Part shown: positions 1-37,810 of the stretch, in pieces
Layout of the letters: every line of letters begins with the position of its first letter
How positions within the stretch are numbered: position 1 is the first letter of the stretch
Origin: a virus
IMG/VR virus record: IMGVR_UViG_3300014541_000011
Coordinates: 1-37,810 of that record
Strand: one strand, 5' to 3'
Length of the DNA stretch: 37,810 bases
Position numbers and translations under genes: made by a program
The notes under the pieces: generated by a model
Told to the model about the DNA's origin: nothing
Databases searched by the model: none
Seen by the model: the letters and a program-made list of their open reading frames with translations, nothing else

Positions 1-239
1 CTGCCGAGGAAATGGTGGACATGTCTTTGCCCGTTTGGTCCGACAAATACGGCGAAGAAAACGGCATACTCGGCGAAGTAAATATAGATGGCGGGCCTAA
101 TAGAGGGATTGCTTTCCCGCAACCGACAACAGGCGATTACCGTGGCTATACGTTCAAGGTCCATATTCACGGTGGCAATCAACCGTGGATTAATTTAGGC
201 CCGTCCGTTGCTTGTCACGCTTGGCGACGCCAACAGTAA
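1..239 (+). CDS. 3' part (variable tip V1a) of wrap-around collar-domain tail fibre gene that starts at 37352; ends ...GGNQPWINLGPSVACHAWRRQQ*
   Basis: Same frame as ORF at 37352..37810 through the 77-nt terminal overlap. C-terminus matches the phage tail collar domain end (GxxQPxxNxxP..Y.W). Confidence 0.75.
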   Translation, partial: AEEMVDMSLPVWSDKYGEENGILGEVNIDGGPNRGIAFPQPTTGDYRGYTFKVHIHGGNQPWINLGPSVACHAWRRQQ

Positions 240-456
240 GTGGCTAAACATGGAGGCATATTATTGTGAGGTTGATCGTTGCCCGCCCTGAATCTAATTA
301 AGTCAAGCTCATTTCGCAACATTCCCGTGGCATAGCCATGCCCCTCTCTTACCGATTGGTCATAGGAAAAGACGCCTTTGGCGAAGATTGGCATCCCTTC
401 TTCTTGTTGAGGAATGTTTTGTAATTCTCCTTCTATTTTTGCCATTTCATCGGCAG
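215..456 (-). CDS. Promoter-less alternative C-terminal tail-fibre cassette V1b (75 aa after crossover repeat 442..456), collar-domain C-half ...GNDQPHNNMPPCLATYCWRRQA*
   Basis: TGA stop immediately upstream in frame and no RBS. In-frame repeat CTGCCGAtGAAATGG (rc of 442..456) matches CTGCCGAgGAAATGG in the parent gene at 37734..37748. Paralogous to V1a, similar length. Confidence 0.7.
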
Positions 457-687
457 CTATTCATTTCTAAACCACGAATAGCAGGCAACAGCAGGTTGCA
501 TATTCTGATGTGGTTGACCGCCACCAAAGTTTAGATTGATAATTACCCCTTCCATATTTTCAGTGGCGGCGGACGGAAACTTATTGCCCGTATTATTAAC
601 GGTAAAGGCGCCACTCAGAGTTTGCTTGTTACCCCACCGCAAAATCGTGCCAATTGAACCTTTGATGGGTGCGGATTCTTCGGCAGT
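457..687 (-). CDS. Promoter-less alternative C-terminal tail-fibre cassette V1c (...GGGQPHQNMQPAVACYSWFRNE*) beginning at in-frame repeat ACTGCCGAaGAA (rc of 676..687)
   Basis: Frame is open upstream of the TTG listed in the ORF track, and no ATG is present. In-frame TAEE at the repeat is identical to TAEE in the parent gene. Collar-type C-terminus. Confidence 0.65.
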   Translation of the reverse strand, partial: TAEESAPIKGSIGTILRWGNKQTLSGAFTVNNTGNKFPSAATENMEGVIINLNFGGGQPHQNMQPAVACYSWFRNE

Positions 688-837: not shown

Positions 838-1791
838 TCATAGCTTATCTACAACTCGGCGCAATTCGGCAAGCGTCTTATGCGTGTAAACGCCCTTTGT
901 GACGCCCTTTCGGGCGTGTCCCAGAATCATCTGGCACGCCGTATCACTGGCGCCCGTGGAATCAAGCATGGATGCGCAGGTATGACGGCATTCGTGCGGG
1001 GTGTGGTGCATTTTTAAAGCCTTCATGACCTTATCAAAAAGCCGTCTGAACCCGTCGTATGTCAAGTGGTATCCGCCTTGAGCCTTGAGCGACTCAAGAA
1101 AGGGCAAGATCTTCCTTGCGATGGGGACCTTGCGCACGCCCGCCGCTGTCTTGCTGTGCTTGATGTCTAGGTATCGCTCCCGAATCTTGATGCTGGCAGG
1201 GCGGAGGGCAAGGAGTTCACCGACTCGTAGGCCCGTATAAATGAGGATTAACACGGCCTGAACGTCGGGATCATCAGCCGCCTTCCATAACCTATTGATT
1301 TCTCGGACCGTGAACGGTCGCTTGACGTGGACGGGGACGTGGGGCTTGATTTCGACGAACCTAGAATAGTCGACGGCCACAAGGTCCCGCTTCATGGCCC
1401 ACTTATACAGCTGACTGAGTAAAACACGGGCCTTCTTCTGCGTGGCATAGCCCGCTTCAATGCCGTCCATGGCGGCCTGTAAATCCTCGTATCTCAGTGA
1501 TTCCATGGGCCTATCGTGGAGCGGAGCAAGGTGCCTGTAACTACTCATATAGGCGGAAACACTTGAACGTGACAGTCCTTCAAAGTGGCGTTCTGACCAC
1601 TTTTCGTAGCCCTGGGAGAACGTTTCGGATTGACCGCCATTCAATTTCAAAAGAAAAGAGAGCGCTTCAACATGGGAAGAAAAATACCCTACTGCCTTTT
1701 GTTTTCCGTTAATGCTTTTCTTGACAACGAAGGGCCGCCGCCTGTTCCCACTTAGCTTATAAACCGTTCCGAACCCATTAGGTAATTTCAT
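838..1791 (-). CDS. Tyrosine site-specific recombinase (317 aa from ATG with GGAGG RBS; 322 aa from the upstream ATG); candidate shufflon invertase (Rci-like role)
   Basis: R...HxxR...Y motifs (TGLRVGEL, HECRHTCAS, GHARKGVTKGVYTH). Placed directly beside the inverted fibre cassettes and separate from the int/xis lysogeny pair. Confidence 0.7.
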   Translation of the reverse strand: MKLPNGFGTVYKLSGNRRRPFVVKKSINGKQKAVGYFSSHVEALSFLLKLNGGQSETFSQGYEKWSERHFEGLSRSSVSAYMSSYRHLAPLHDRPMESLRYEDLQAAMDGIEAGYATQKKARVLLSQLYKWAMKRDLVAVDYSRFVEIKPHVPVHVKRPFTVREINRLWKAADDPDVQAVLILIYTGLRVGELLALRPASIKIRERYLDIKHSKTAAGVRKVPIARKILPFLESLKAQGGYHLTYDGFRRLFDKVMKALKMHHTPHECRHTCASMLDSTGASDTACQMILGHARKGVTKGVYTHKTLAELRRVVDKL

Positions 1792-1829
1792 TTCATCAAC
1801 CTCCATGAAAAGAATAAGGAGAACGTATC

Positions 1830-4231: not shown

Positions 4232-5299
4232 TTAGTATAGAGATTCAATGGCTTTAGCTGCAACCTTATTGATGTCGTCCGTGTAATTGACGTAAACCTT
4301 GCAAACGGTGGCCACAGTGTCCCCTAAGACATGAGCGACAAGGTTAATATCTCCCGTCCTGGACAACAGGAGAGTGGCAAAGGTGTGGCGTAACGCATGG
4401 ATGGACCTACCGGGAAAGTTGCGACCAATCACACGATTCAGTTCAGTCTGAACAGAGTGCCCTTTATCAATTGGGAAAACAGTTCCTGTAATCTCCATTG
4501 GGCGTGTGTCACGCCACTTTTTTAGTTTCTGCAGGACAAGCGGAGAAGCCGGAATGGTTCGGTGGCTGTTTCGTGTTTTGCATGGACCAATACCGTAGCT
4601 ATTTTGACCAATGAGCGTGTATTGCTGGGTGATGGTAATGGTCTTTTTAAACCAGTCGATGGCATTCCAGGGTAGCCCATAAATTTCACCGAACCGCATA
4701 CCTGTGTTAGCGGCCAAGGTAATGACCAAACTATAAATCGAATTAAATTCAACAATATCTTGGAGCTTGGAAAGTTCTTCCTTCGTGAAGGCACGCAGGA
4801 TAGTAGGATTCTTTGATTGTGGGAGTTTAATTCCTTTAGCAGGATTAGAGGGGATAATCTTGTATATCTCCTTTGCATGCTCAAGCACCGGCGAGATGCA
4901 GCGTAGATGAGCCCTCTTAGAACTGGCCTTCCCTTCAATCTGCATCAAAGCGTTGGTAAGATTTGCCGTGGTAATATCCCTAATTGGCACAGTGGCAAGA
5001 TTTCCCATTTTTTTCAAGGCCAGGGCGTAATTCTTCAATGTATTTGGAGCTAAAAATTCCTTTTTGTCACGCATAAAGATGGGTAAAAATTGTTGAAGTG
5101 AAATATTTTTAAGGGTAGCGTCGTCCGTCAGGCCTTCCAATTCCTTAACTTGCGCAAGCAGCTCATCCTGATAGCGGCGGGCCTCTCTTTGATTTTTAAA
5201 TCCTTGCTTTGTCTTTTGTCGCCACTTGGTGCCGACTTTGTAGGACAGGATCAGGCAGACACCGCCATTTTTCTCACGATACGAAAAGGTATATTCCAT
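4232..5299 (-). CDS. int: Tyrosine integrase (phage integrase family, 355 aa)
   Basis: C-terminal catalytic motifs HALRHTFAT...LGDT...Y. AAAGGAG RBS. Sits beside the Xis-like gene and the repressor module. Confidence 0.85.
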   Translation of the reverse strand: MEYTFSYREKNGGVCLILSYKVGTKWRQKTKQGFKNQREARRYQDELLAQVKELEGLTDDATLKNISLQQFLPIFMRDKKEFLAPNTLKNYALALKKMGNLATVPIRDITTANLTNALMQIEGKASSKRAHLRCISPVLEHAKEIYKIIPSNPAKGIKLPQSKNPTILRAFTKEELSKLQDIVEFNSIYSLVITLAANTGMRFGEIYGLPWNAIDWFKKTITITQQYTLIGQNSYGIGPCKTRNSHRTIPASPLVLQKLKKWRDTRPMEITGTVFPIDKGHSVQTELNRVIGRNFPGRSIHALRHTFATLLLSRTGDINLVAHVLGDTVATVCKVYVNYTDDINKVAAKAIESLY

Positions 5300-5385
5300 A
5301 AAAATCAGCTCCTTTGCTGGCTTGAAAGGGGCTGGCTGTGGTAAAATAATACAGTAAGCCCCTTTGGTAGGTGGGTTACGCTTTT

Positions 5386-5421
5386 CCCTGCTGGTACCGC
5401 AAATACCAGCAGGGATTTTTT
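5386..5421 (+). terminator. Strong hairpin CCCTGCTGGTA-ccgcaaa-TACCAGCAGGG followed by ATTTTTTATTT
   Basis: 11-bp perfect stem plus a T run on the + strand, between int and the exonuclease gene. Confidence 0.6.
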
Positions 5422-6466
5422 ATTTATCTTCTCTGATTTTGTACTGATGCACATAATCAGCAGGAAGCGGTGGTGCAAGCTTCTTTTCTATGATGGTGGC
5501 AATAAGATCTTTTTTCAGACCCTTCGTGGGAAGCCCGGCGTCTGCCAGAATCTTTTGAAGGTCTGCCTTATGCAGCTTACTCAATTCAATCTCATTGGAA
5601 ACATCTACAAGGCGGGCATATGTTCCCGGATTCACAAAGTCCCTAATGAAATCTTCTTTTGAGTAATTTTTTGGCTTTTCCTTGTATAAGGATTCGTAGG
5701 AAATCCCACCAGCGTAAGTCTTTGCCTCATACAAGACAGCCTTGACAAAAAGTTCCTCAGAAAACCGGTACAGAGATTTGATGATGGGGACTGTCCCTTT
5801 ATCCATGGTATCCTGCATGATTTGGGCACATGCCTTGGCATCAGACAGGGATTCATGGTGATTCAAGTCGAGATTGAGATATTTACAGATGGTGTCCAGC
5901 TTGTAGTTTTCCAGATTCCTGTAGGTGTATCTGGCACTCTGCAGAGAGTCGGCAAAGAGAAGCGGTTTATCCAGGGTGATTCCTTCCGTCTTAGCGGTAT
6001 AGATCAGACAGCCCATATCAAAGTTGGCGTTGTGTGCCACCAGGGGGAACCCTTTGATGAAATCGCGGAAGGTGGATTCATAGAATTCTTTGAAGGTGGG
6101 AGAATTCCGAACTTTTGACCAGGTGATTCCATGGACATAGGAATTCGTGAATTTTGCTTCCGGAGGCTTAATCAAAGAAGTGACAGAACCAGTGAACTGC
6201 CGGTTTTCAACTTTTACGGCGGAAATACTACAGATTGAATATGGCTGCGCATTGGCAGTTTCCACATCGAATGCCACAAAGCTGTCCATCGGGACCCTGT
6301 ATTCATTTGTCACCGGCAGTCTTACCCTTGCAAATCCCTTGTATTCGGGAAGCCTAAATGGGGCCAGTTCATCTGGCTTCATGGGAGATTCTGCAATCAT
6401 CCTGTCCTTTGCTTTTTTATTTAAAATGACAACAACGAAAATAACAATGACAATTAATAATGCCAT
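5420..6466 (-). CDS. Membrane-anchored DnaQ-like (DEDDh) 3'-5' exonuclease with C-terminal SAP domain
   Basis: N-terminal TM ALLIVIVIFVVVIL. Exo motifs FDVETA, HNANFDMGCL and H..SLSDAKAC. C-terminal DLQKILADAGLPTKGLKKDLIATIIE (SAP-like). Confidence 0.6.
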   Translation of the reverse strand: MALLIVIVIFVVVILNKKAKDRMIAESPMKPDELAPFRLPEYKGFARVRLPVTNEYRVPMDSFVAFDVETANAQPYSICSISAVKVENRQFTGSVTSLIKPPEAKFTNSYVHGITWSKVRNSPTFKEFYESTFRDFIKGFPLVAHNANFDMGCLIYTAKTEGITLDKPLLFADSLQSARYTYRNLENYKLDTICKYLNLDLNHHESLSDAKACAQIMQDTMDKGTVPIIKSLYRFSEELFVKAVLYEAKTYAGGISYESLYKEKPKNYSKEDFIRDFVNPGTYARLVDVSNEIELSKLHKADLQKILADAGLPTKGLKKDLIATIIEKKLAPPLPADYVHQYKIREDK

Positions 6467-7498: not shown

Positions 7499-8281
7499 AT
7501 GAAAAAACTAGAAATTTTTCAAAATAAAAGTTTCGGCCGCATCAGAACACTGGCTATCAACAATGAGCCTTGGTTTGTTGGCAAGGACGTTGCTGAAATA
7601 CTCGGGTATGCAAAGCCTGAAAATGCCATTGCAAACCATGTGGATGAAGAAGACAAAACCAGTACCCTGATTCAGGGGAGTGGTTCAAATTACAAAAGCA
7701 AAGCAATCATCATCAATGAATCAGGACTCTACAGCCTGGTTCTATCCAGTAAGTTGCCGTCAGCCAAAGAGTTCAAGCGGTGGATCACCCACGAAGTCAT
7801 CCCCGCTATCCGGAAACACGGTGCCTATATGACCGAGGATACCCTTGAAAAGGCATTGACCAGCCCCGACTTCTTGATTCAGCTGGCAACTCAGCTGAAG
7901 GAAGAGAAAGAAAAGCGACTTGCTGCAGAAAAGCAAATTGAAATGGACCGACCGAAGACCATCTTCGCCGATGCGGTGAGTGTCAGTAAAGACGGCATCC
8001 TGGTAGGAGCTTTGGCCAAACTGATCCACCAGAACGGAGTGGAAATCGGGCAAAAACGCCTGTTCCAGTGGCTGCGGGATCATGGATACCTGATGAAATC
8101 CGGGGCAGACAAGAATATGCCAACTCAGAAGGCCAGGGACATGGATCTGTTCAAGGTAAAAGAACGGACCATCAACAACCCGGATGGATCAGTGAGACTG
8201 ACCAGGACAACCCTGGTGACTGGCAAAGGGCAGCAGTACTTCGTGAATAAGTTTTTGGCGGGGAGGGAATCCCATGACTGA
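7499..8281 (+). CDS. Phage antirepressor (Bro-N plus KilA-C/ANT domains)
   Basis: N-terminal FGRIRTLAINNEPWFVGKDVAEILGY is typical of Bro-N. Confidence 0.8.
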   Translation: MKKLEIFQNKSFGRIRTLAINNEPWFVGKDVAEILGYAKPENAIANHVDEEDKTSTLIQGSGSNYKSKAIIINESGLYSLVLSSKLPSAKEFKRWITHEVIPAIRKHGAYMTEDTLEKALTSPDFLIQLATQLKEEKEKRLAAEKQIEMDRPKTIFADAVSVSKDGILVGALAKLIHQNGVEIGQKRLFQWLRDHGYLMKSGADKNMPTQKARDMDLFKVKERTINNPDGSVRLTRTTLVTGKGQQYFVNKFLAGRESHD

Positions 8282-28126: not shown

Positions 28127-30184
28127 ATGGCACGAGTCATTGATGCCATCATCCGGCTCCATGACCAATTCAGTCCTGTGCTGAAGAAAGTCAGCAATAG
28201 CCTGACAGAGTCGGAGAAACTGACCAACCGATTCGGCAGGAATCTGAAGAGCATCGGCGGAACGATGTCTTCTGTCGGAGCGACGGTTTCCACCGCTATG
28301 GCGCCCATCATGGCTGCTGCCGCTGCCGGGCTGAAGCTCCACAGCGACTTTGAGCGGGGCATGGCAAAAGTCAGCACACTAGTGGATACAAACGTAGTCA
28401 GCCTTCAGCAGCTGTCCAATGGCATCCGTCAAATTTCCGACGAAACCGGCATGAGCGTGACCGAACTGGCTGAAGCTGAATATCAGGCAATTTCCGCTTC
28501 CGTTGACACGGCCCATGTTACAGACTTTGTCAGGACGGCAGCCATTGCCGCAAAGGCTGGCTTCACCGACACGACCACAGCTATCGACGGGTTGACGACA
28601 GTGCTCAACTCCTACGGCATGAGTGCTGAAAACGCCGGGAAAATCACGGATCAGATGCTCATGACCCAGAATCTGGGCAAAACGACCTTCGGCGACCTGG
28701 CTCAGGGCATTGGTTCCGTAGCCACGGCGGCCAGCCTGGCCAAAGTCAGCACGGACGACCTGTTTGCCAGCATGGCCATTCTGACCAAAAACGGCGTACA
28801 GACGTCTGAGGCATTCACTGGCTTCCAGGGCATCCTGAGCGCTGTGTCCAAACAAAGCCAGCAAACTGTCAAAACAGCTGCAGCCCTGGGGCTGGACTTC
28901 ACACCGGAACACCTAGGACAAGTCGGATGGATCCAGTTCCTAACTGAAGTCAAGGAAAAGGTCGGCGATGATCAGACGGCCATTCAGCACCTGTTCGGCA
29001 GAGTCGAAGCGGCCAATGCTTTCAAGGTCCTAACCAAAGATCTGGGGCAGCTGAAAGACGCACAGAGAGCGATGGGTGACTCCATGGGAGCCACGGAGCT
29101 GGCATTTAACAAGATGCTGACCCCGGCGGAGAAAAACAAAATCGCCATGAACCAGATGAAGAACGCCCTCATGGATCTCCGTGGAGTCGTCGCTCCTGTG
29201 GTCATGGCAACCGCTCAGGCTGTCAAAGCGTTCACCGGTTGGTGGAACGGGCTCAGTGATGGGCAGAAAGCCTTTGCAGTCCATGCCATCCAGGTAGTGG
29301 CAGCATTCGGAGCCATCACTCTGGGCGTAGGGAAAGCCATCAGCGCTGTGGGACGTTTCAGCATATTTATCAACAGATTGCCCCGGACCTTCCGCAACAT
29401 CCGGAGTGCTGCTTCCATCATCGGGAAAGGCTTTTGGGTCATTCCCGGCGCCCTTCGTCTCGTAGGCGGAGGCTTCCTGCGCATGGCTGGAATCGTAAAA
29501 ACGGCCATGAGTGGTATCGCTGCTGCCGTCGCCGCAAACCCGGTTTTCTTCGCCCTGACCGCTCTGGTGATGCTGCTTGTTGTTGTCTACAACCACTGGG
29601 ATGAAATCGTCAGCTACGTCAAGGAGAACTTCCCACAGGTATATGCCGTCGTCACCAGCGTTGTGTCCAACGTCATGAGCAAGCTGGGTGCCCTGATCGA
29701 CTGGATCACGGGGACGCTGATCCCGATGTGGACCAACGGTTGGAACACCATGAAGGCCATCTTCGAAGGGGCCTTTGACGGGATCTCTACGATCGCCCAC
29801 CGGGCGCTGGATTGGATCCTGGACAAAGTGGAAAGCGTCAAGAGCGCTGTGTCCAGCATCCATCTGCCGAGCTTCAGCTTAGGCGGACATGCCACCGGCA
29901 CTATGGGGCTCCCTGGTGGAACGACCTTTATTCACGAACAGGGCCCTGAAATTATGGACCTGCCCACAGGTACCCGGATTATTCCTCATTCCGAATCCCT
30001 TCAGGAGGAATTCAGACGAGGAAAGGACGAAGGGCGGAAAAGCATGGGAGCGGCTGTCTTCAACATCCCGAAGCTGGCTGATCAGATCGTGGTCCGGGAA
30101 AATGCCGACGTCGACCGAATCATGGAAAAACTTGTATTTAAATTGAAGCAGTTCAGCATCAACCGCATGGAGGGGGCGATCTAA
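28127..30184 (+). CDS. Tail tape measure protein
   Basis: 685 aa, helical with a hydrophobic central segment. Position. Confidence 0.85.
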   Translation: MARVIDAIIRLHDQFSPVLKKVSNSLTESEKLTNRFGRNLKSIGGTMSSVGATVSTAMAPIMAAAAAGLKLHSDFERGMAKVSTLVDTNVVSLQQLSNGIRQISDETGMSVTELAEAEYQAISASVDTAHVTDFVRTAAIAAKAGFTDTTTAIDGLTTVLNSYGMSAENAGKITDQMLMTQNLGKTTFGDLAQGIGSVATAASLAKVSTDDLFASMAILTKNGVQTSEAFTGFQGILSAVSKQSQQTVKTAAALGLDFTPEHLGQVGWIQFLTEVKEKVGDDQTAIQHLFGRVEAANAFKVLTKDLGQLKDAQRAMGDSMGATELAFNKMLTPAEKNKIAMNQMKNALMDLRGVVAPVVMATAQAVKAFTGWWNGLSDGQKAFAVHAIQVVAAFGAITLGVGKAISAVGRFSIFINRLPRTFRNIRSAASIIGKGFWVIPGALRLVGGGFLRMAGIVKTAMSGIAAAVAANPVFFALTALVMLLVVVYNHWDEIVSYVKENFPQVYAVVTSVVSNVMSKLGALIDWITGTLIPMWTNGWNTMKAIFEGAFDGISTIAHRALDWILDKVESVKSAVSSIHLPSFSLGGHATGTMGLPGGTTFIHEQGPEIMDLPTGTRIIPHSESLQEEFRRGKDEGRKSMGAAVFNIPKLADQIVVRENADVDRIMEKLVFKLKQFSINRMEGAI

Positions 30185-30909
30185 TGGCGAATGAATTTTG
30201 GAGTGGACTAATCTCCGGCCTGATTTCCGGCAACGTCAATTCCGTGATCCTGAGCGCCAACGGAGACTCCATGACGTTCCCCATCATGCCCGAGACGGTG
30301 GAAACAAGCGTCTCCCAGAACAACGGCACTGTGACCATCAATGCCGATGGAGATTACAACATGCCTGGGAAGACGGGACTCCATGAGATCAGCCTGGATG
30401 GGATTTTCCCGGCTCAGAACTACAGCTTCGTGGATGTTACCCCGGAAAGCCCGGAAGACTATGTTTATCAGCTGGAAAACTGGAGATCCACCGGGCAGGT
30501 TGTTCAGCTGACTGTGCCGGATAGCCCTATCGACCTGCCGTTTCTCATCGAGTCGCTGAAATACGGATACAAGGATGGAACCTACGATATCTATTTCAGC
30601 ATTTCTTTCCGTGAGTACCGCTACATTGCTGGGATCTCCAACGATAAAATCAACGAATTGACCGGGCTGAAATCCCGCCCTGACACCATGGTGGGGACCG
30701 GAGGGATCATCGGCACGACCGCAACCAGCGGAACGGATATGGCAGGGAATATCGGCAGAGCTATCGGCGGTGCTGTAAGATCTGGCACGACGTCTCCCAT
30801 GGGCTGCATCGAAGCCGCCATGAGGGCCTGTAAGAAAGGCGGCGTGAAGCCGGGCGACCTGATCAAGGTCGCTGCATCGGGGGTGATGGTCAATGACCGA
30901 GTCATTTAG
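30184..30909 (+). CDS. Tail protein (post-tape-measure, XkdP position)
   Basis: Position only. Confidence 0.4.
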   Translation: MANEFWSGLISGLISGNVNSVILSANGDSMTFPIMPETVETSVSQNNGTVTINADGDYNMPGKTGLHEISLDGIFPAQNYSFVDVTPESPEDYVYQLENWRSTGQVVQLTVPDSPIDLPFLIESLKYGYKDGTYDIYFSISFREYRYIAGISNDKINELTGLKSRPDTMVGTGGIIGTTATSGTDMAGNIGRAIGGAVRSGTTSPMGCIEAAMRACKKGGVKPGDLIKVAASGVMVNDRVI

Positions 30910-32296
30910 TCTCCTCGATGTAACCACAGGTGTGTACCTCACGCCCTGGATCATTTCCTATGAGTGGTCCGGGGACCTGGAACAGGCAGGCCGGAAGCTG
31001 AACTTCAAAATCGCCTATACAACAAAAGATAATGCTTGGATGAACCCAGCTATCAATCTGGGGGACGAGATTATGCTTTACTGTATCGACCCAACGGCAG
31101 GCGGGCAGTTTGACCTTTTCCACGGGAAAATCTTCATGCAGAGCCGGGAAAGCAGCTCCTACGAGATGGAATTTGTTGCCTACGATAAGCTGATTTATCT
31201 GGCAAAATCCAAATACACGTTGAAATTCTCGGAAGCCCCTGTGAAGGACGTTCTCTCCACGGTAGCCAGCAAGGCTGGCCTGACCCTGGGCCGGGTGGCC
31301 GATGACTTGACCTATACCGTCGATTTTGTGGCCGATGGAATGACCGGCACAGAAATCATCAAAAAGGCTTTAGAACAAGGACGGAAAAAATCCGGGAAAA
31401 GCTATCACATCTATCTGGATGCCCATGACAAGCTGAATGTCGTCAGAGCTGACACGATTATCCAGGGCTATGCCATCACTGATATGACCAATCTGACCAC
31501 AGCCAGCCACAGCGCCAGCATTGAAGACATGGTCAACCGGGTGGAAATCACTGACAAGGACGGACATGTGATCGGGGCTGTGACCAACTCCGACGATGTC
31601 AAAGCCTACGGCACTATCCAGGGCGTTTATAAAGTGGACAACAAGCAGGATACACAGTCCAGCGCCAAAGCCTTGCTGAAAAGCGTAAGCGAGCATAGCG
31701 AGGTGGAAGCCCTGGGCAATATTCAGTGCATCGCAGGATATGCGGTTGAAATCCAGGAAGAGCAGCTGAAAGGCACCTTCTTGATTGTATCTGATTCTCA
31801 TACCATCGAGAAAAACCGACACATGATGAAGCTGACGCTGCGTTATCTGGATCAGGAAGCTAAGCCGAAAATCACGACCGAAGGAAACACATCCGGCGGT
31901 GGCGTTACCATCGGGAACATCGACGAAGGTATGAGCTCCGGGGAAGCTGCCTGGCTGGGGGCGACCATGGACAACGGAACGGAAGGCTGCGTGGAAGCAG
32001 CAACAAAAGTCGGAAGCTATTACAGTCCATTCCTTGCCCAGGAATACTCTAATGGCGTGGTCAATGTCACCACGCTAGCCAATGATGCAGGCTCCAACAC
32101 CATCGACTTTGATGCTTCCCAGCTAGAGAAAGGCGACGTTATCGTTTATGGCGACAATGATCATGTGGTCATTTACGATGGCCAGGGCGGATACATCGGG
32201 AATAGCAGCAGCCAGGATGAAGTAGTACATGGTTCGAACTACAACGAAATGGGCGGGTTGACGCCTACCCAGATCATCAAGACGTCCAGGATATAA
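30893..32296 (+). CDS. Tail hub protein (XkdQ-like) with C-terminal NlpC/P60- or CHAP-like peptidoglycan hydrolase domain
   Basis: C-terminal Cys...His pattern (GCVEAATKVG...DVIVYGDNDHVVIYDG). Confidence 0.5.
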   Translation: MTESFSLLDVTTGVYLTPWIISYEWSGDLEQAGRKLNFKIAYTTKDNAWMNPAINLGDEIMLYCIDPTAGGQFDLFHGKIFMQSRESSSYEMEFVAYDKLIYLAKSKYTLKFSEAPVKDVLSTVASKAGLTLGRVADDLTYTVDFVADGMTGTEIIKKALEQGRKKSGKSYHIYLDAHDKLNVVRADTIIQGYAITDMTNLTTASHSASIEDMVNRVEITDKDGHVIGAVTNSDDVKAYGTIQGVYKVDNKQDTQSSAKALLKSVSEHSEVEALGNIQCIAGYAVEIQEEQLKGTFLIVSDSHTIEKNRHMMKLTLRYLDQEAKPKITTEGNTSGGGVTIGNIDEGMSSGEAAWLGATMDNGTEGCVEAATKVGSYYSPFLAQEYSNGVVNVTTLANDAGSNTIDFDASQLEKGDVIVYGDNDHVVIYDGQGGYIGNSSSQDEVVHGSNYNEMGGLTPTQIIKTSRI

Positions 32297-32308
32297 GGAG
32301 GATGCAGC

Positions 32309-32734
32309 ATGAAGAAAAACCCATACAGCGAACTCCTTGGAATCATGAACGGTGTGGGGAGAAATAACCAGAGCCCGACAATCCAGATCGGGACCATCCT
32401 GGAGCCACCGCCCAACATCAAGGTGAGATACAAGAGCATTATCCTGGAAGCTGCCGAATGTTATATAAGTGAATATCTTCTGACCCAATACAAGAGATTA
32501 GCAGAAGGAAACATTAAAACGATCACTGAAAACGTATCAGGAGGATCTGGTGACGCTCAATATGCAAGCCATGCCCATCCGGTCAATCACTACTACTCAG
32601 AGTCCTGGATTACAACTGATACCCTGAAGCCTGGGGACAAGGTGGCAATCATGCCGTGTGAATCCGAAGATGGCACAAGTCAGACATACATCATCCTGGA
32701 CAAGATCGTCCGTCCGAATCGAGGTGCATTTTAA
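32309..32734 (+). CDS. Baseplate-associated protein (XkdR/DUF2577-like)
   Basis: Position. Confidence 0.35.
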   Translation: MKKNPYSELLGIMNGVGRNNQSPTIQIGTILEPPPNIKVRYKSIILEAAECYISEYLLTQYKRLAEGNIKTITENVSGGSGDAQYASHAHPVNHYYSESWITTDTLKPGDKVAIMPCESEDGTSQTYIILDKIVRPNRGAF

Positions 32735-33192
32735 TGAACCCTTTCATCGCTGGGCCTATCACTCAGACCGCCAAAAGTTACACGGCAAACCTGCCGGAGC
32801 TCCAGGAGTTGGCGTGGGACTTTACCCATGATATTTTCGTCCATGATAATGATGGCCGTTTGAAAACGGTCACAGGAAACGAAGCTTTGAAGGTCTGGAT
32901 CTACAAAGCCTTGAAGACGGAGCGCTACCGCTACATGGCATATCTTTATGGTGAATACAACGCTGAAGGGAACTATGGCGTGGAGCTGGAACGCTTCATC
33001 GGCACCCGGTCAAACAGCGAAATCAGTGCCACAGAGATTAAGAGATACATCAAGGATGGGCTCCTGGTGAATCCCTATATCAAGAGCGTGGACGCAATCG
33101 AGACAACCGTCCGGGATGGAGAAAACCTGACGCTGACGGTCAATTTGACAAGCGTTTACGGCAGTACATCCATCACGGTAGGAGGTGAATAG
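32734..33192 (+). CDS. Baseplate wedge protein (XkdS/DUF2634, gp25-like)
   Basis: Size and position, overlapping stop/start. Confidence 0.5.
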   Translation: MNPFIAGPITQTAKSYTANLPELQELAWDFTHDIFVHDNDGRLKTVTGNEALKVWIYKALKTERYRYMAYLYGEYNAEGNYGVELERFIGTRSNSEISATEIKRYIKDGLLVNPYIKSVDAIETTVRDGENLTLTVNLTSVYGSTSITVGGE

Positions 33193-33194
33193 GA

Positions 33195-34235
33195 TTGTTT
33201 GAAGTACAAAGTAAGGACGAAATCCAGAAACGCATGGCGGCGGACCTTTCCACCATGAATCCCAACAGCACCATCGAGGGGAGCTTCGGCCGTGACGTCA
33301 TCAACGCCACCAGTGTGGAATTTGAGAAAACTTATGCAGAACTTTCTCTGGTGAACCAGGCAGGATTTGCACAAACCTCATGGGGAGACTACCTGGAAAA
33401 CATCGCTGAAGAACATGGCGTCTTTAGACGGGCAGCTGTCCAGGCCATCGGCACCGTCACGGTGACCGGCACTGGGACTGTCTCCCAGGGTGCGCTATTC
33501 CAGACTCAGGACGGAACGGAATTCACGGCAACGGAGACCGTCAAGGTTACCAGCACGGCTGACATCCCCGTGAAAGCGGTGGAGTATGGGGCCAAAGGGA
33601 ACGTGGCCGCCGGGGCCATTACGATCATCCCCATGAGCATCCCCGGCATCACCCGGGTAACCAATGCCAAAGCTACCTATGACGGCTTCGACGAAGAAAC
33701 GGACGACGAGCTCCGAGAACGGTTGCTGTTTAAGGTCCGCCAACCGGCAACATCTGGCAACATAAACGATTACATCGAGTGGGGAAACAGCGTAGAAGGC
33801 GTGGGACACATCACGGTTGTCCCTCTCTGGAACGGCAACGGCACGGTGAAGCTGCTGGTGACCGACTCTAACGGCCAACCGGCCAGCCCGGACCTTTTGG
33901 CCAGGGTGACTGAAAAGGTGGAAACCATGCACCCCATCGGTGCTGACGTGTCTGTCATTGCTCCCTCCGTACTGGGACTGACCATCGCTTTGACTCCCAC
34001 CAAAGGCGGGGGAGATGCCGATGCTATCAAGAAGGTTCTCAACAAGTATTTCTTGAGCAAACAGTACACCGAGAAAAAGGTCTCCTATGCGAAGGTGGGA
34101 CAGCTGATCATTGAGAACAGCAACACGACCCAGGTGGAAGACTACGATAACCTCACCATTAATGGGACGACGGCAAACATCGGCGTGGATACCGACCAAA
34201 TCCCGTCCGTCGTGGAGGTGGTGCTCAATGCCTAA
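33195..34235 (+). CDS. Baseplate J-like protein (XkdT-like)
   Basis: 346 aa. Baseplate_J-like sequence character. Confidence 0.65.
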   Translation: MFEVQSKDEIQKRMAADLSTMNPNSTIEGSFGRDVINATSVEFEKTYAELSLVNQAGFAQTSWGDYLENIAEEHGVFRRAAVQAIGTVTVTGTGTVSQGALFQTQDGTEFTATETVKVTSTADIPVKAVEYGAKGNVAAGAITIIPMSIPGITRVTNAKATYDGFDEETDDELRERLLFKVRQPATSGNINDYIEWGNSVEGVGHITVVPLWNGNGTVKLLVTDSNGQPASPDLLARVTEKVETMHPIGADVSVIAPSVLGLTIALTPTKGGGDADAIKKVLNKYFLSKQYTEKKVSYAKVGQLIIENSNTTQVEDYDNLTINGTTANIGVDTDQIPSVVEVVLNA

Positions 34236-35001
34236 TTTTAAATTGTTAAGGGACAGTGATCCGGACGTCAAAAAGTATCTCCCTCTGTTCCTTATCAACG
34301 ATCCCACCTTCAAATCCTGGCTGGATACCCAGAGCGACGAACATAAGCGCATCTGGACCGACATCATCGACGCCTGGAAACAGTTCTACGTGAATGAAGC
34401 TACCTGGGGGCTGTCTGACTGGGAAGCCTTTTTGGGGATTCCCACGGATGAAAAGCTGTCCTACACAGTGAGACGGGCGGCAATCATCGCCAAGATGAAC
34501 GGGACTCAGACGGTGACTAAAGAGTTTCTGGAACGGACCATCAACAGCTTTACCTCCGATAAATCAAGCCGTGTGGTGGACCATCCAGACCAGTACAGCG
34601 TTGACATCTATCTGCCTAATGGTGGGGTTCTCTCTTTCGAGGAAATGGATAAGGCCATCCGGACTTTCATGCCAGCGCATATCGGCTGGCGATATATATA
34701 TAAAACCTACGTCAACGGCAGCCAGTACATCGGGGCTGTGCTCCGTCCCGCCCGGACCATCATGGAGATGGGCAGGCTGAAAGGTGACAAGCTGACCGGC
34801 CAGAGCGTGCTCCGGCTGGATAAATCCATCGACTACGTAAACGGCGATGGGCAAATCCAGACAACCCCGGATGGAGTCAAGACCAACGCAGTGCTGGATT
34901 CCACACCTACGACCATCAGTCCCTGTTCGTCCGCTCCCATCGGAGCCACAGACGGGATTTTCTACGTCAACGGAGATGGGAACATCAAAACGATTAGTTA
35001 G
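34228..35001 (+). CDS. Tail protein XkdU/DUF2313-like
   Basis: Position after baseplate J. Overlapping start. Confidence 0.45.
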   Translation: MPNFKLLRDSDPDVKKYLPLFLINDPTFKSWLDTQSDEHKRIWTDIIDAWKQFYVNEATWGLSDWEAFLGIPTDEKLSYTVRRAAIIAKMNGTQTVTKEFLERTINSFTSDKSSRVVDHPDQYSVDIYLPNGGVLSFEEMDKAIRTFMPAHIGWRYIYKTYVNGSQYIGAVLRPARTIMEMGRLKGDKLTGQSVLRLDKSIDYVNGDGQIQTTPDGVKTNAVLDSTPTTISPCSSAPIGATDGIFYVNGDGNIKTIS

Positions 35002-35016
35002 AAAAGGAGTGAGACA

Positions 35017-36216
35017 ATGGCAGAATTTCACAATATCACCGTCACCAATGACGGGATGAAGCTGATAGCCCTGGCCAGCGCCATGCAGAAGCCAATTGTG
35101 TTTGACCGCATGGACATCGGGGATAGCAGACCTACGGATGCCAGCAAGGTGGCGTCCCTGACCGCTGTGGTCAACAAGCGCATCGAAGCGACCATCTCCG
35201 ATATCGGAGTGGTCACCAATGCCAATGTCAGCGAAGCTAGATACAGAATCCTGGGCAAATACAGCAACAGCAGCGTGACAACGGGATTTAAGCTGTCCGA
35301 AGTGGGCGTGATTGCCCACGTCGAGTCAAACTACTACCAGGATTCAGGCTGGAACGGCTACGCCGGAGAGAACTTGCTCTTCGGCTATTTTTATGCGGAT
35401 GAGGGGAAAGAAGACTGGCTGCCGTCCAAAGATATGCTCATGGACGATTTGCAGATGGGCGCCTATTTTACGGTCAGCAATGCCACCAGCATTGCTGTCT
35501 ACATCAACGAAGAAGATAACGTTAGCCGCTTCGATTTCAACGTCCATCTGAGCGACAAAAACGCCCACTCCGATGTGATCGGCTGCACAAGCACGTCCGA
35601 CGGCGTTCGAGGATTTGTTCCGAAACCGGAAAAAGGGGACGGGGAAAAATTCCTGTCAGCCGAAGGGAAGTGGAAAAAGGCAAAAATGACCCCCTTAGAA
35701 CTCGTCAATATCCTATATCCAAAGGGCATCATCCTTCCGTTTGCAGACGGTACGAATCCAAATGAGCTATGGCAAGGCACGACTTGGAAGCGCACGTTGC
35801 AGGGTCGTGTTCCTATCGGAGCTGGCGATTACTGGGAGAATGGGAAAAAGTTTAGCTATTCCGTAGGGGATACGGGCGGCGAAGCTGAACACAAACTCAC
35901 TGAGAGTGAATTGGCAAAAATCACGCCTAAAATTGCGTCGTCAACGCTGGCTGTATCTAGGGTTGCACAAATTCATGGGGTCGTCACGAAGTACTCATCG
36001 ACAAACCAATACAAAGATGTTCCGAAAAATGGTTGGTCGGGAACAGTTGTCAGCGGTGAAGAATCGGGCGGAGGGACCAAGGACCACGGAATTGAGGTCC
36101 GCAACGTCCTTGAAACCTTGTCCCCTTCTATCGCAATAGAATCTATCGGTGGCGACGAAAGCCACGAAAACAGGCCCCCGTTCCAAGGCGTTTGTTATTG
36201 GGTTCGCACCCAGTAG
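35017..36216 (+). CDS. Tail fibre protein with C-terminal tail-collar domain (constant part to about 35915, then variable tip V2a)
   Basis: GGAGTGA RBS. Collar-domain motifs ...GEAEHKLTESEL... and a terminal HENRPPFQGVCYWVRTQ. Confidence 0.8.
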   Translation: MAEFHNITVTNDGMKLIALASAMQKPIVFDRMDIGDSRPTDASKVASLTAVVNKRIEATISDIGVVTNANVSEARYRILGKYSNSSVTTGFKLSEVGVIAHVESNYYQDSGWNGYAGENLLFGYFYADEGKEDWLPSKDMLMDDLQMGAYFTVSNATSIAVYINEEDNVSRFDFNVHLSDKNAHSDVIGCTSTSDGVRGFVPKPEKGDGEKFLSAEGKWKKAKMTPLELVNILYPKGIILPFADGTNPNELWQGTTWKRTLQGRVPIGAGDYWENGKKFSYSVGDTGGEAEHKLTESELAKITPKIASSTLAVSRVAQIHGVVTKYSSTNQYKDVPKNGWSGTVVSGEESGGGTKDHGIEVRNVLETLSPSIAIESIGGDESHENRPPFQGVCYWVRTQ

Positions 36217-36475
36217 GCAACGCCGCTATACGGCATCCTGTTCTCATGAGCGGCCCCGCCGCCCGTCGTGGAAATGGTGATGTTGTGGGAATGATTGCCA
36301 GCGTACGAGATAGGTTCAGTTTTCCATCTTCTGGACCCGTCACGGCCTTTGTGAGCGCAGTTATTGTATTGCCCCCAGTCGTCGCCTAATGAATTGCTTA
36401 GTTGAATATTGTGATTGTGATCCCCTGCAACTGCCGCCGTGGCGAGGTGGCTGTGAGGTGCCAGTTCACTCTCAG
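36195..36475 (-). CDS. Promoter-less alternative tip cassette V2b: (ESEL)APHSHLATAAVAGDHNHNIQ...GNHSHNITISTTGGGAAHENRMPYSGVAYWVRTQ*
   Basis: Frame opens at CTGAGAGTGAAcTGGC (rc of 36460..36475), homologous to 35898..35915. No start codon. HxH repeats. Absent from the ORF track because it has no Met. Confidence 0.7.
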
Positions 36476-36479
36476 CCCG

Positions 36480-36780
36480 TTAAGCCGTTCTTTCCCAATA
36501 TGCCACGCCCTGATACGGTTGGCGGTTTTCATGTCCTTCACCAGTCCCAGACGTGGCCAAAGAAACGGTGACAGCGTGGGAATGATTGCCATCTGTTGTG
36601 GTTTTTCCGAGGTAGTTATCGTGATCTGTTCCGGATGCCCCAGCATACCCACCTTGTGACGAATATTCGCCCAATGGATTGTTTTGTTTCACGTCACCTC
36701 TCCCACCGTGGTAATGAGCGCCGTTAGTACTGCAAGCCGCAGAAGCTCTGTGGGTGTGAGGCGCCAATTCACTCTCAGTG
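36480..36780 (-). CDS. Promoter-less alternative tip cassette V2c: (TESEL)APHTHRASAACSTNGAHYHGG...GNHSHAVTV...HENRQPYQGVAYWERTA*
   Basis: 18-nt perfect repeat CACTGAGAGTGAATTGGC (rc of 36763..36780) identical to 35898..35915 and in frame. The TTG in the ORF track is not a real start. Confidence 0.7.
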
Positions 36781-36792
36781 AAAGGAGATAAA

Positions 36793-37116
36793 ATGCACGT
36801 TTTTCAAATTTTGAACAATGAAGTCACCGTTATTGACGGTGACAAAACCTATATTGATTCCTATGACAATTTCGTGGCTGACGGGGGACGGCATGACATC
36901 CCCCGAAAAGTCATATACGACGAAGCCCAAAAATGCTGTGTGGTGGAAGACAGGTTCCTTCCGTATCCAAACTTTGAATTTGAGGACATTATCGCAACCC
37001 TTGATTCCCTTGTCGAAGCAAAGGAAAAGCGGGAGCCGCAACCAGAGGCCCCAGCCATGGACCCCAAAATCGCCCTTACAGACGATTACAACGAAAGCGC
37101 AAGGGGATTTGTCTAG
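36793..37116 (+). CDS. Hypothetical protein (possible fibre assembly factor)
   Basis: AAAGGAG RBS. Confidence 0.4.
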   Translation: MHVFQILNNEVTVIDGDKTYIDSYDNFVADGGRHDIPRKVIYDEAQKCCVVEDRFLPYPNFEFEDIIATLDSLVEAKEKREPQPEAPAMDPKIALTDDYNESARGFV

Positions 37117-37226
37117 CGCCTACACTATCGCTTGTCTGAGAGGCGATTTGACGGTACAGGAAAGTATTAAAAGCGATTTTGAAGCGTTACAAGAAGCCTA
37201 CAAGACGGAAATGGAGGAATTGAAAG

Positions 37227-37355
37227 ATGAAATTTAAGCTTCCAAAGCGTTGCCCCTATTGCGCTCACAAGCTGAGCGAAGAAGAGAAATGCGTGAACCC
37301 TGAATGCATTGCGTATGATCAGAAAAAAGACGAAAAGGAGCGTGAAGAAGAATGA
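37227..37355 (+). CDS. 42-aa zinc-ribbon protein (CPYC...CVNPEC)
   Basis: GGAGG RBS. ATGA overlap with the collar gene. Confidence 0.4.
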   Translation: MKFKLPKRCPYCAHKLSEEEKCVNPECIAYDQKKDEKEREEE

Positions 37356-37810
37356 CCACGAGAGCATTAGTACCGAATGCCGATGGGGAAGGCTCCCTGG
37401 GTATTGAAGGGTTAAATTGGGGAGCTATGTACGTCTCGTCCCCGGAAAAAGACGACGATTCTCAGAAAGTGCCGTCGACGGCGTGGGTGCGGCAAATCAT
37501 CGCAGAAGAAATCCAGAAGGCTTCCCTTTTCACCCTCGAACGCATCTTTCCCGTCGGCAGCATCTACACATCGCTTACTGACTCCCGCAATCCTTCTGAG
37601 ATACTAGGATTTGGCACATGGGAACCCTTGCCGGCAGGCTACACCCTCATCGCCCAAGGCCAAGGCACGGACCAGTTTGGCAGTTTTGAGTACGTAGCTG
37701 GACAAAAGTACGGCGAACGAATGCACCAACTCACTGCCGAGGAAATGGTGGACATGTCTTTGCCCGTTTGGTCCGACAAATACGGCGAAGAAAACGGCAT
37801 ACTCGGCGAA
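37352..37810 (+). CDS. 5' part of wrap-around collar-domain tail fibre gene (about 206 aa in total; continues at 1..239)
   Basis: Collar N-half FPVGSIY...LPAGY...GERMHQLTAEEM. In frame across the circular junction. Confidence 0.75.
   Translation, partial: MTTRALVPNADGEGSLGIEGLNWGAMYVSSPEKDDDSQKVPSTAWVRQIIAEEIQKASLFTLERIFPVGSIYTSLTDSRNPSEILGFGTWEPLPAGYTLIAQGQGTDQFGSFEYVAGQKYGERMHQLTAEEMVDMSLPVWSDKYGEENGILGE
37734..37810. repeat. 77-nt terminal overlap identical to 1..77 (circular contig signature)
   Basis: Exact identity, read directly. Confidence 0.9.

Follow-up and report, generated by a model that had tools for sequence, protein, structure and literature searches.

The window analysed here is the whole 37,810-nucleotide (nt) stretch of virus record IMGVR_UViG_3300014541_000011, a circular phage contig whose bases 1-77 repeat 37734-37810 as a 77-base-pair (bp) terminal direct repeat, and which carries two tail-fibre genes, TF2 and TF1. 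Each is followed by two promoterless cassettes on the opposite strand, 76-99 codons in length, that encode alternative C-termini. Comparison with related phages showed, from aligned genomes, that both fibre loci (locus 1 at TF1, locus 2 at TF2) are active in nature, that the strand-exchange region of their recombination sites is a 7-mer (positions 1-7 of the site) and that this core is locus-specific. We consider it probable that the phage possesses two insulated shufflons with a shared right arm, locus-specific cores and one plausible recombinase. By this explanation, a circular temperate phage of a Megasphaera-type host would carry two independent multiple-inversion systems, each of which would fuse the constant N-terminal part of a tail-fibre/receptor-binding gene to one of three C-termini. 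The outcome would be 3 x 3 fibre combinations, with the open reading frame (ORF) ORF107, a Zn-ribbon ORF and the TF1 N-terminus protected between the loci. We infer that one enzyme acts at the two loci, that exchange between them is blocked where the cores do not match and that the difference between the cores has adaptive value.

Organisation of the two fibre loci

The features concerned are given below in window coordinates, with parent sites written as left flank, 7-bp core and right arm.

35017-36216, plus strand: TF2 tail-fibre gene, 399 amino acids (aa); in its current state the constant N-terminal part is joined to the expressed cassette Ca
35894-35914, plus strand: locus-2 parent site, AACTCA CTGAGAG TGAATTGG; core 35900-35906, with TCA and TGA flanks forming a dyad round it
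36195-36476, minus strand: locus-2 silent cassette Cb, 93 codons (AESELAPHSH…YWVRTQ, stop); site 36461-36475, core 36469-36475
36480-36779, minus strand: locus-2 silent cassette Cc, 99 codons (TESELAPHTH…YWERTA, stop); site 36764-36778, core 36772-36778
36793-37355, plus strand: inter-locus genes, ORF107 (36793-37116) and a 42-aa Zn-ribbon ORF (37227-37355)
37352-37810, plus strand: TF1 tail-fibre gene, first part (Pfam Gp10_C); 206 aa as a whole, resuming at window 78-239 over the circular junction
37728-37748, plus strand: locus-1 parent site, AACTCA CTGCCGA GGAAATGG; core 37734-37740, duplicated at window 1-7
1-239, plus strand: remainder of TF1, which is the expressed cassette Ca of locus 1 with its stop codon; bases 1-77 equal 37734-37810
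215-457, minus strand: locus-1 silent cassette Cb, 80 codons (AADEMAKIEG…CWRRQA, stop); site 442-456, core 450-456
457-687, minus strand: locus-1 silent cassette Cc, 76 codons (TAEESAPIKG…SWFRNE, stop); site 672-686, core 680-686
838-1806, minus strand: candidate invertase, a 322-aa tyrosine recombinase (catalytic R…K…HxxR…H…Y) abutting the locus-1 cassettes

TF2 combines a tail-collar-fibre N-terminus with a Gp10_C-like C-terminus (Pfam Phage_tail_fib N-terminal and Gp10_C; PHROG tail fibre families). A preliminary description of this DNA had quoted a parent 21-mer for each locus, and both are present, that of locus 1 at 37728-37748 and that of locus 2 at 35894-35914, 2 nt away from the position first reported for it (35896-35916). 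The same description had proposed that five of six sites fit the pattern CTG-N5-GAA-N-TGG (CTGNNNNNGAANTGG). A search of the window returned six matches against 0.40 +/- 0.57 expected, a number reached in 0 of 100 shuffles. These six correspond to five unique sites because 1-15 and 37734-37748 are one and the same on a circular contig with a terminal repeat; the five, 37734-37748(+), 442-456(-), 35900-35914(+), 36461-36475(-) and 36764-36778(-), are as many as had been proposed. The sixth site, 672-686(-), reads CTGCCGAAGAATCCG: it fits CTG-N5-GAA-N but ends in CCG, missing only the TGG, and its right arm is degenerate (AGAATCCG).

The C of CTG falls at codon position 2 of a Thr or Ala codon in 6/6 sites, in agreement with the common codon phase claimed earlier, and each of the six opens an in-frame alternative C-terminus of 76-105 codons. 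Also as described, the cores are invariant within a locus and different between loci: CTGCCGA in locus 1 and CTGAGAGTGAA, that is CTGAGAG(TGAA), in locus 2, with 4 mismatches between CTGCCGA and CTGAGAG. The bare 7-mers were discarded as significant features in their own right, occurring elsewhere in the genome at roughly chance frequency and never with a GAA arm. Oppositely oriented site pairs drawn from different loci span about 1.0-2.5 kb, so that an inter-locus inversion of 'about 1.5 kb', as had been suggested, holds as an approximation; the two parent sites, however, would delete rather than invert, as they are direct repeats 1.83 kb apart. Either event would disrupt ORF107 and the Zn-ribbon ORF.

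The TAG stop of locus-1 cassette Cc (459-457, minus strand) lies directly against the core of Cb, whose first codon begins with the last base of that stop; in many related loci the upstream cassette's stop likewise abuts the next core and shares its last base with the next cassette's first codon. The 3' ends of the convergent cassettes overlap by ~20-27 nt at 215-240 and 36195-36218, on quasi-palindromes (TTGGCGACGCCAA; TGGGTTCGCACCCA) that encode the conserved C-terminal W-R-R-Q / Y-W-V-R-T-Q and stop on both strands. The counterpart in the related contig L027 is a perfect palindrome, TGGGTACGTACCCA.

Crossover core and locus specificity in related phages

Related loci were gathered from IMG/VR (42) and from GTDB genomes (7). 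Sites within them were located as C-Y-R-N5-GAR in frame with an ORF of 45-140 codons ending in a fibre C-terminal motif, independently of core identity, and this yielded 39 unique loci with 113 sites. All sites of a locus were identical at positions 1-7 in 95-100% of the 39 loci, compared with 28% at position -1 and 56% at +8. Core positions 2 and 5, though synonymous codon positions, were invariant within 95-100% of loci, whereas the synonymous positions 8, 11 and 14 were identical within just 54-62%.

Natural isomers place the exchange in the same 7-mer. Contigs L035 and L036 come from two metagenomes and show no difference over 12,365 nt except in locus 1; two in-silico inversions placed precisely at the CCACCGA cores rebuild L036 from L035 with 0 mismatches, and as the flanks differ at -1/-2 and at +8, exchange in this pair lies within 7-8 bp. 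A gut viral contig (L020) and a prophage of Megasphaera massiliensis NP3 (L044) are 100% identical in their segments but lie two inversions apart in locus 2 (core CTACCAA) and one apart in locus 1 (core CCGTTGG), with the inter-locus genes unchanged. A further pair, L032 and L033, are locus-2 isomers at 99.6% identity. The 7-mer can thus be identified as the crossover core because pairs of otherwise 100% identical phages differ just by inversions there, and the two lines of evidence, within-locus identity and isomer mapping, substantiate the earlier proposal that it is the overlap region.

The window itself takes part in such permutations. Its locus 2, in the order Ca+ Cb- Cc-, is converted to that of L040 (Cc+ Ca+ Cb-) by two inversions, the cassettes being 95-98% identical, and the window and L040/L041 possess the same cassettes in permuted arrangement. 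The window's silent locus-2 Cc (98% aa identity) is the expressed cassette in L040 and L041, and a Cb-like locus-2 cassette (94-95% identical) occurs in other positions and orientations in L027 and L040. Since natural isomers of both loci exist, both are active shufflons in this phage family; each has three sites, in mixed orientation as is usual for shufflons (which have at least three), together with in-frame 3' segments and naturally permuted isomers.

The order TF2, cassettes, ORF107, Zn-ribbon ORF, TF1, cassettes, recombinase is common to 23 contigs (the window counted) and their constant parts are all co-oriented; no inter-locus inversion or deletion was seen among these 23 two-locus contigs. 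Together with the flips between L020 and L044, this upholds the expectation that both loci invert without inter-locus change. A direct locus-1 isomer of the window's own phage was not found by pattern searches of IMG/VR and a scan of one metagenome: the locus-1 parent site with a CTGCCGA core gave no match in IMG/VR, the sole match to the cassette-side CTGCCGA pattern was contig L002, and the metagenome scan returned one contig, L051, which was rejected as an isomer of the window because it is another phage and its parent core is mismatched. The window starts exactly at base 1 of the locus-1 parent core, which suggests, by inference, an assembly-graph branch of the kind expected from in-sample inversion heterogeneity. 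None of the relatives' contig ends coincides with a site, the window alone starting at a core. In the L020/L044 pair, otherwise 100% identical, a 1-nt indel is present at position -1 of the distal locus-1 site (L020 ~5991, L044 ~6992).

The cores themselves proved to be locus-specific in the genomes compared. Locus-2 cores in the family comprise CTGAGAG, CTGAAAG, CTGCTGA, CTGTTGA, CTATCAG, CTACCGA and CTACCAA; locus-1 cores comprise CCACCGA, CCGTCGA and CCGTTGG in addition to the CTGCCGA of the window, and single-locus relatives add CCGTTGA, CCGAAGG and CTGTCGA. In none of the 8 distinct two-locus combinations do the loci have a core in common; the two always differ at 3 nt or more, which extends to the family the earlier observation that the loci keep different cores. 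When the two loci of a phage are compared, identity is just 9-33% at positions 2-5, while positions 8-16 are approximately as similar as within a locus.

Right arm, candidate recombinase and alternative explanations

The family consensus site is C-Y-R-N-N-R-R followed by K-G-A-R-N-T-R-S-C, encoding Thr/Ala/Ser-x-x-Glu-Leu/Met-Ala/Pro. Within it, 9, 10, 13 and 16 are conserved throughout, and 11 and 17 are free to vary; to the left of the core, from -10 to -1, only -3 shows conservation. Alignment across related phages, which the preliminary description had advised, bears out the 7-mer identity within loci and the arm; core letters, GAA and TGG vary, with cores such as CCACCGA, CCGTCGA and CTACCAA, GAG besides GAA and TGC besides TGG. 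What survives of the shared site grammar is thus a common right arm with non-coding biases, the literal CTG-N5-GAA-N-TGG being lineage-specific and made up mostly of Thr-x-x-Glu-Leu/Met-Ala codons.

The biases were measured against genome codon usage. At codon 3 of the sites, the ratio of GAT to GAC is 50:0 (genome 45:55), of AGT to AGC 13:0 (genome 18:82) and of AAT to AAC 3:0 (genome 41:59), such that C is absent from position 8 (66:0 for Y-ending two-fold codons). At the Leu codon, TTG and TTA account for 41/68 sites (15% genome-wide) and CTC and CTT for 2/68 (34% genome-wide). These codon biases, present in both loci alike, mark the right arm as under constraint at the level of DNA and are left unexplained by coding alone. 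The occurrence of GAA in 6/6 window sites was dismissed as evidence, since 66% of the genome's Glu codons are GAA. The left flanks are non-homologous, yet at position -3 the 73 unique cassette sites have T (78%) or G (21%). The parent sites moreover read TCA-N7-TGA, a dyad centred on the 7-mer; it is suggestive only, and we weight it lightly because the stop codon of the upstream cassette often supplies the T at -3 as its first base.

One invertase-like gene is present, beside locus 1. Its 322-aa product matches Pfam PF00589 (Phage_integrase; E = 9e-18, above the cut-off) and, weakly, PF13495; PDB sequence matches are to XerA, XerD and Int, and NCBIfam gave weak, sub-threshold Xer-type matches only. 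The catalytic residues of a tyrosine recombinase are visible as R (GLRVGE), K, HECR, GH and VYTH, and the protein ends ~15 residues after the catalytic Tyr (~residue 307), with no C-terminal extension. Homologues 53-89% identical flank the locus-1 cassettes in most relatives with that flank recovered. A tblastn search of 72,556 PLSDB plasmids (E <= 1e-3) returned no IncI/Escherichia hits and so gave no sign of membership of the Rci family. Homologues 25-37% identical in cultured phages (Butyrivibrio Arawn and Ruminococcus gnavus phages) were set aside as ordinary integrases, not invertases, situated beside lysis and repressor modules. Residues ~1-55 (KLPNGFGTVYKLSGNRRRPFVVKK), which precede the SAM-like domain, resemble the small arm-type DNA-binding domains of integrases and have no Pfam hit.

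Enzyme and core do not covary. The recombinases of L002 and L041 are 100% identical despite different locus-1 cores, those accompanying the CCGTTGA and CCGAAGG phages are 95-97% identical, and recombinases 93% identical accompany three locus-2 cores (CTGTTGA, CTGCTGA and CTGAGAG). As near-identical recombinases accompany different cores, the enzyme appears not to read the core, the behaviour expected of an overlap region that is sensed for partner homology.

Taken together, these findings suggest an asymmetric, sfx-like site with an unconserved left flank (T/G at -3), a 7-bp core within which strands would be exchanged and a right arm K-G-A-R-N-T-R-(G/C)-C. The core would be free to vary between loci and phages but would have to match between partner sites. 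Given a right arm that the two loci share, it is plausible that one recombinase binds at each of them, and the obvious candidate is the 322-aa enzyme beside locus 1; because the cores differ, productive exchange should stay within a locus. On a broader proposition, namely that a single core-agnostic tyrosine invertase runs two orthogonal shufflons through a common right arm, with the evolvable 7-bp overlap acting as the 'address' of a locus, we are evenly divided. At least 12 natural cores occur among the relatives, with enzymes 93-100% identical. Such a system would be the natural equivalent of heterospecific lox sites, restricted to inversion, and core switching (as in L002, L051 and L042, below) would provide a route to lock, unlock or split cassettes into independent shufflons.

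Several observations weigh against this explanation. The sites are phylogenetically related, such that the counts overstate independence, and the site finder itself demanded C-Y-R at positions 1-3 and GAR at 9-11. Within-locus identity is not universal, as three loci possess mixed cores: locus 1 of L002 (IMGVR_UViG_3300029412_000261) has two CCACCGA and two CTGCCGA sites, the CTGCCGA cassettes being nested between the CCACCGA sites; in locus 1 of L051 (UMHQ01027236.1) a CTGCCGA parent faces CCACCGA cassettes, one frameshifted by 1 nt; and in locus 2 of L042 CCGTTGA is paired with CTGCTGA. These loci may represent locked cassettes or transitional states in core switching, and they imply that cores can change in place. 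The same cassette and left flank occurs with CCACCGA in L041 and CTGCCGA in L002, from which it follows that cores convert, or occasionally recombine across 2 mismatches; Cre, for its part, tolerates some non-identical spacers in vitro (PMC1479339). Three lineages (L028, L038 and L040) have no recombinase in the recovered flank yet retain perfect locus-2 sites, so that a trans-acting or different enzyme may operate there. These have also lost the distal locus-1 cassettes, TF1 being followed directly by lysis genes (e.g. L040 8354-9282), and locus 2 of L040 is in a rearranged state despite the absent gene. Finally, the conserved Glu-Leu/Met-Ala/Pro codons also account for much of the right arm, and two paralogous loci would be expected to acquire different cores by neutral divergence. 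The core difference, portrayed earlier as an insulation mechanism, may therefore reflect drift between paralogues rather than selection for insulation.

The last two points can be developed into an explanation of their own, in which the shared grammar is a by-product of coding in paralogous Gp10_C/tail-collar-like domains whose variable part begins Leu-Thr-x-x-Glu-Leu/Met-Ala/Pro, the cores have drifted neutrally and insulation is incidental; the resemblance of the loci in DNA would then be uninformative on recombinase recognition. Both fibres hit Pfam Gp10_C, all conserved letters of CTG-N5-GAA-N-TGG lie on constrained codon positions, the run of GAA codons is unremarkable at the genome's usage, and relatives with GAG, with TGC for TGG and with non-CTG cores, as well as the freely variable positions 11 and 17, are all as coding would have it. 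It leaves unaccounted for, however, the invariance of synonymous core positions 2 and 5 against the laxity of 8, 11 and 14, the exclusion of C from position 8, the restriction of Leu codons to YTR against genome usage, and T or G at -3 in 99% of the 73 cassette sites with non-homologous flanks, constraints that act on DNA and are the same in both loci. We therefore regard a purely coding origin as unlikely.

A division of labour, in which the adjacent recombinase acts on locus 1 alone and locus 2 is inverted by the integrase encoded at 4232-5299 or by a host invertase, would make the core difference a mark of two specificities rather than of insulation under one enzyme. Locus 2 has no recombinase of its own, the three lineages described above keep locus-2 sites (rearranged in L040) without the locus-1 enzyme, and a trans-acting invertase has been proposed for a second phage locus in bifidoprophages (PMC6109161). 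Against this, the right arm, the TCA-N7-TGA parent dyad and the DNA-level codon biases are indistinguishable between loci, near-identical recombinases accompany different locus-2 cores, both loci are flipped in one 100%-identical phage pair, and the second recombinase possesses an integrase arm-binding architecture with 21% identity to the candidate invertase; we judge two enzymes to be improbable. Homologous recombination or gene conversion between short repeats, in place of programmed inversion, might be suspected from the mosaic cassettes of the relatives and from the tendency of positions 8-16 to homogenise within a phage beyond the 7-mer. Exchange confined to 7-8 bp is nonetheless far below the length of a RecA substrate, and the isomers are related by clean multiple inversions, without a single point difference in more than 12 kb. 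Most relatives also have a tyrosine recombinase linked to their cassettes, and the site geometry is that of a tyrosine-recombinase core site. This route was rejected as extremely improbable. The explanation we prefer thus remains that of two insulated shufflons under one plausible recombinase.

Related systems and phage context

The R64/IncI shufflon (Rci, sfx) offers the closest parallel in site design. There too, multiple inversion is tied to a tyrosine recombinase (here the linked candidate) and swaps the C-termini of a surface-recognition protein, the sites lie inside coding sequence, and the arrays tolerate sites in direct orientation. An sfx site is asymmetric: its left arm varies, its core is 7 bp long and its right arm is conserved (PMC11852207). 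The per-position profile of the sites in the window's family has the same architecture. The systems differ in their target (a phage tail fibre here, the PilV adhesin in R64) and in the recombinase, which here is not a detectable relative of Rci and is without the Rci-type C-terminal extension; R64 has one core at one locus, in contrast to two loci with different cores in one genome.

In function the window resembles the Rin shufflons of Bifidobacterium and Eggerthella prophages (PMC6109161, PMC8778435), in which a phage tyrosine invertase adjoins tandem C-terminal cassettes of a receptor-binding protein (RBP), crossover repeats are short and asymmetric, and prophage and virion genomes have been seen as isomers. 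The candidate invertase and fibre cassettes of the window conform to this definition. Differences lie in the host phylum (Negativicutes here), the fibre fold (Gp10_C-like as opposed to TP901-1 RBP-like or lectin) and the 11-bp rix, TTCCCTAACCC, which clearly differs from the present sites. A protein search of phage collections (31 records at E <= 1e-10) named no Bifidobacterium among the hosts or organisms listed. Rin is described as a single locus per phage (PMC6109161, PMC8778435); other bifidophages have a second inverted locus without a recombinase and with an unrelated 8-bp repeat (PMC6109161). In sum, the window holds sfx/Rci-like sites in a Rin-like phage shufflon, and phage tyrosine-invertase shufflons of RBPs are already known.

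Gin, Cin, Pin and Min (of Mu, P1, e14 and p15B) likewise switch host range by inverting alternative tail-fibre C-termini, and Min is a multi-segment shufflon. These rely on serine invertases, an enhancer and Fis, and their crossover is 2 bp, unlike the tyrosine recombinase and 7-bp overlap found here. No serine recombinase was hit among nine proteins scanned round the two loci, and a serine invertase was rejected as an explanation given a linked tyrosine recombinase and an identity block of 7 bp. Engineered heterospecific lox/FRT spacer variants, and HvsR of Mycoplasma pulmonis, a single recombinase with one kind of site at vsa and another at hsd (cited in PMC2268961), have in common with the system proposed here that one tyrosine recombinase uses several separate sets of sites, which fail to cross-react because their central parts or the sites as a whole differ. 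The lox variants are man-made, the HvsR sites are reported to be two distinct recognition sequences, not one shared arm with interchangeable cores, and neither case concerns phage fibres. We found no description in the literature of a phage whose two shufflons share an arm but differ in their cores.

If one enzyme does run two insulated shufflons, the phage would have access to 3 x 3 or more combinations of receptor-binding tips with its essential tail genes not put at risk, a compact solution to host-range bet-hedging in the gut and a natural demonstration of overlap-region identity as an addressing code. The core and arm variants, with their near-identical enzymes, would then supply parts for multiplexed, lossless DNA shuffling and barcoding, for which fully orthogonal Rci/sfx pairs are still lacking (PMC11852207). 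Loci of this kind break or mis-order short-read assemblies of gut phages, and host range is under-represented because fibre genes are annotated from one isomer.

The host group is of the Megasphaera type, as prophages in Megasphaera hexanoica and M. massiliensis are among the relatives. When 30000-37733 was compared by blastn with 50,697 GenBank phages there were zero matches, and the phage accordingly has no cultured close relative. The two fibre genes of the window come after a baseplate module of the contractile-tail type, which has Baseplate_J and a protein like Mu Gp48. Between the fibre genes, ORF107 has no family hit and the 42-aa ORF carries CxxC…CxxC; both are kept between the fibre loci in all relatives and may be fibre chaperones or assembly factors. 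The second tyrosine recombinase (4232-5299; Arm-DNA-bind_4 domain, 21% identical to the candidate invertase) looks like a lysogeny integrase, and the presence of a lysogeny module (integrase, anti-repressor) in the window indicates that the phage is temperate. Within 4232-6466 the integrase adjoins a 348-aa RNase_T-type exonuclease with a SAP domain, and the Ant/Bro anti-repressor is encoded at 7499-8281.

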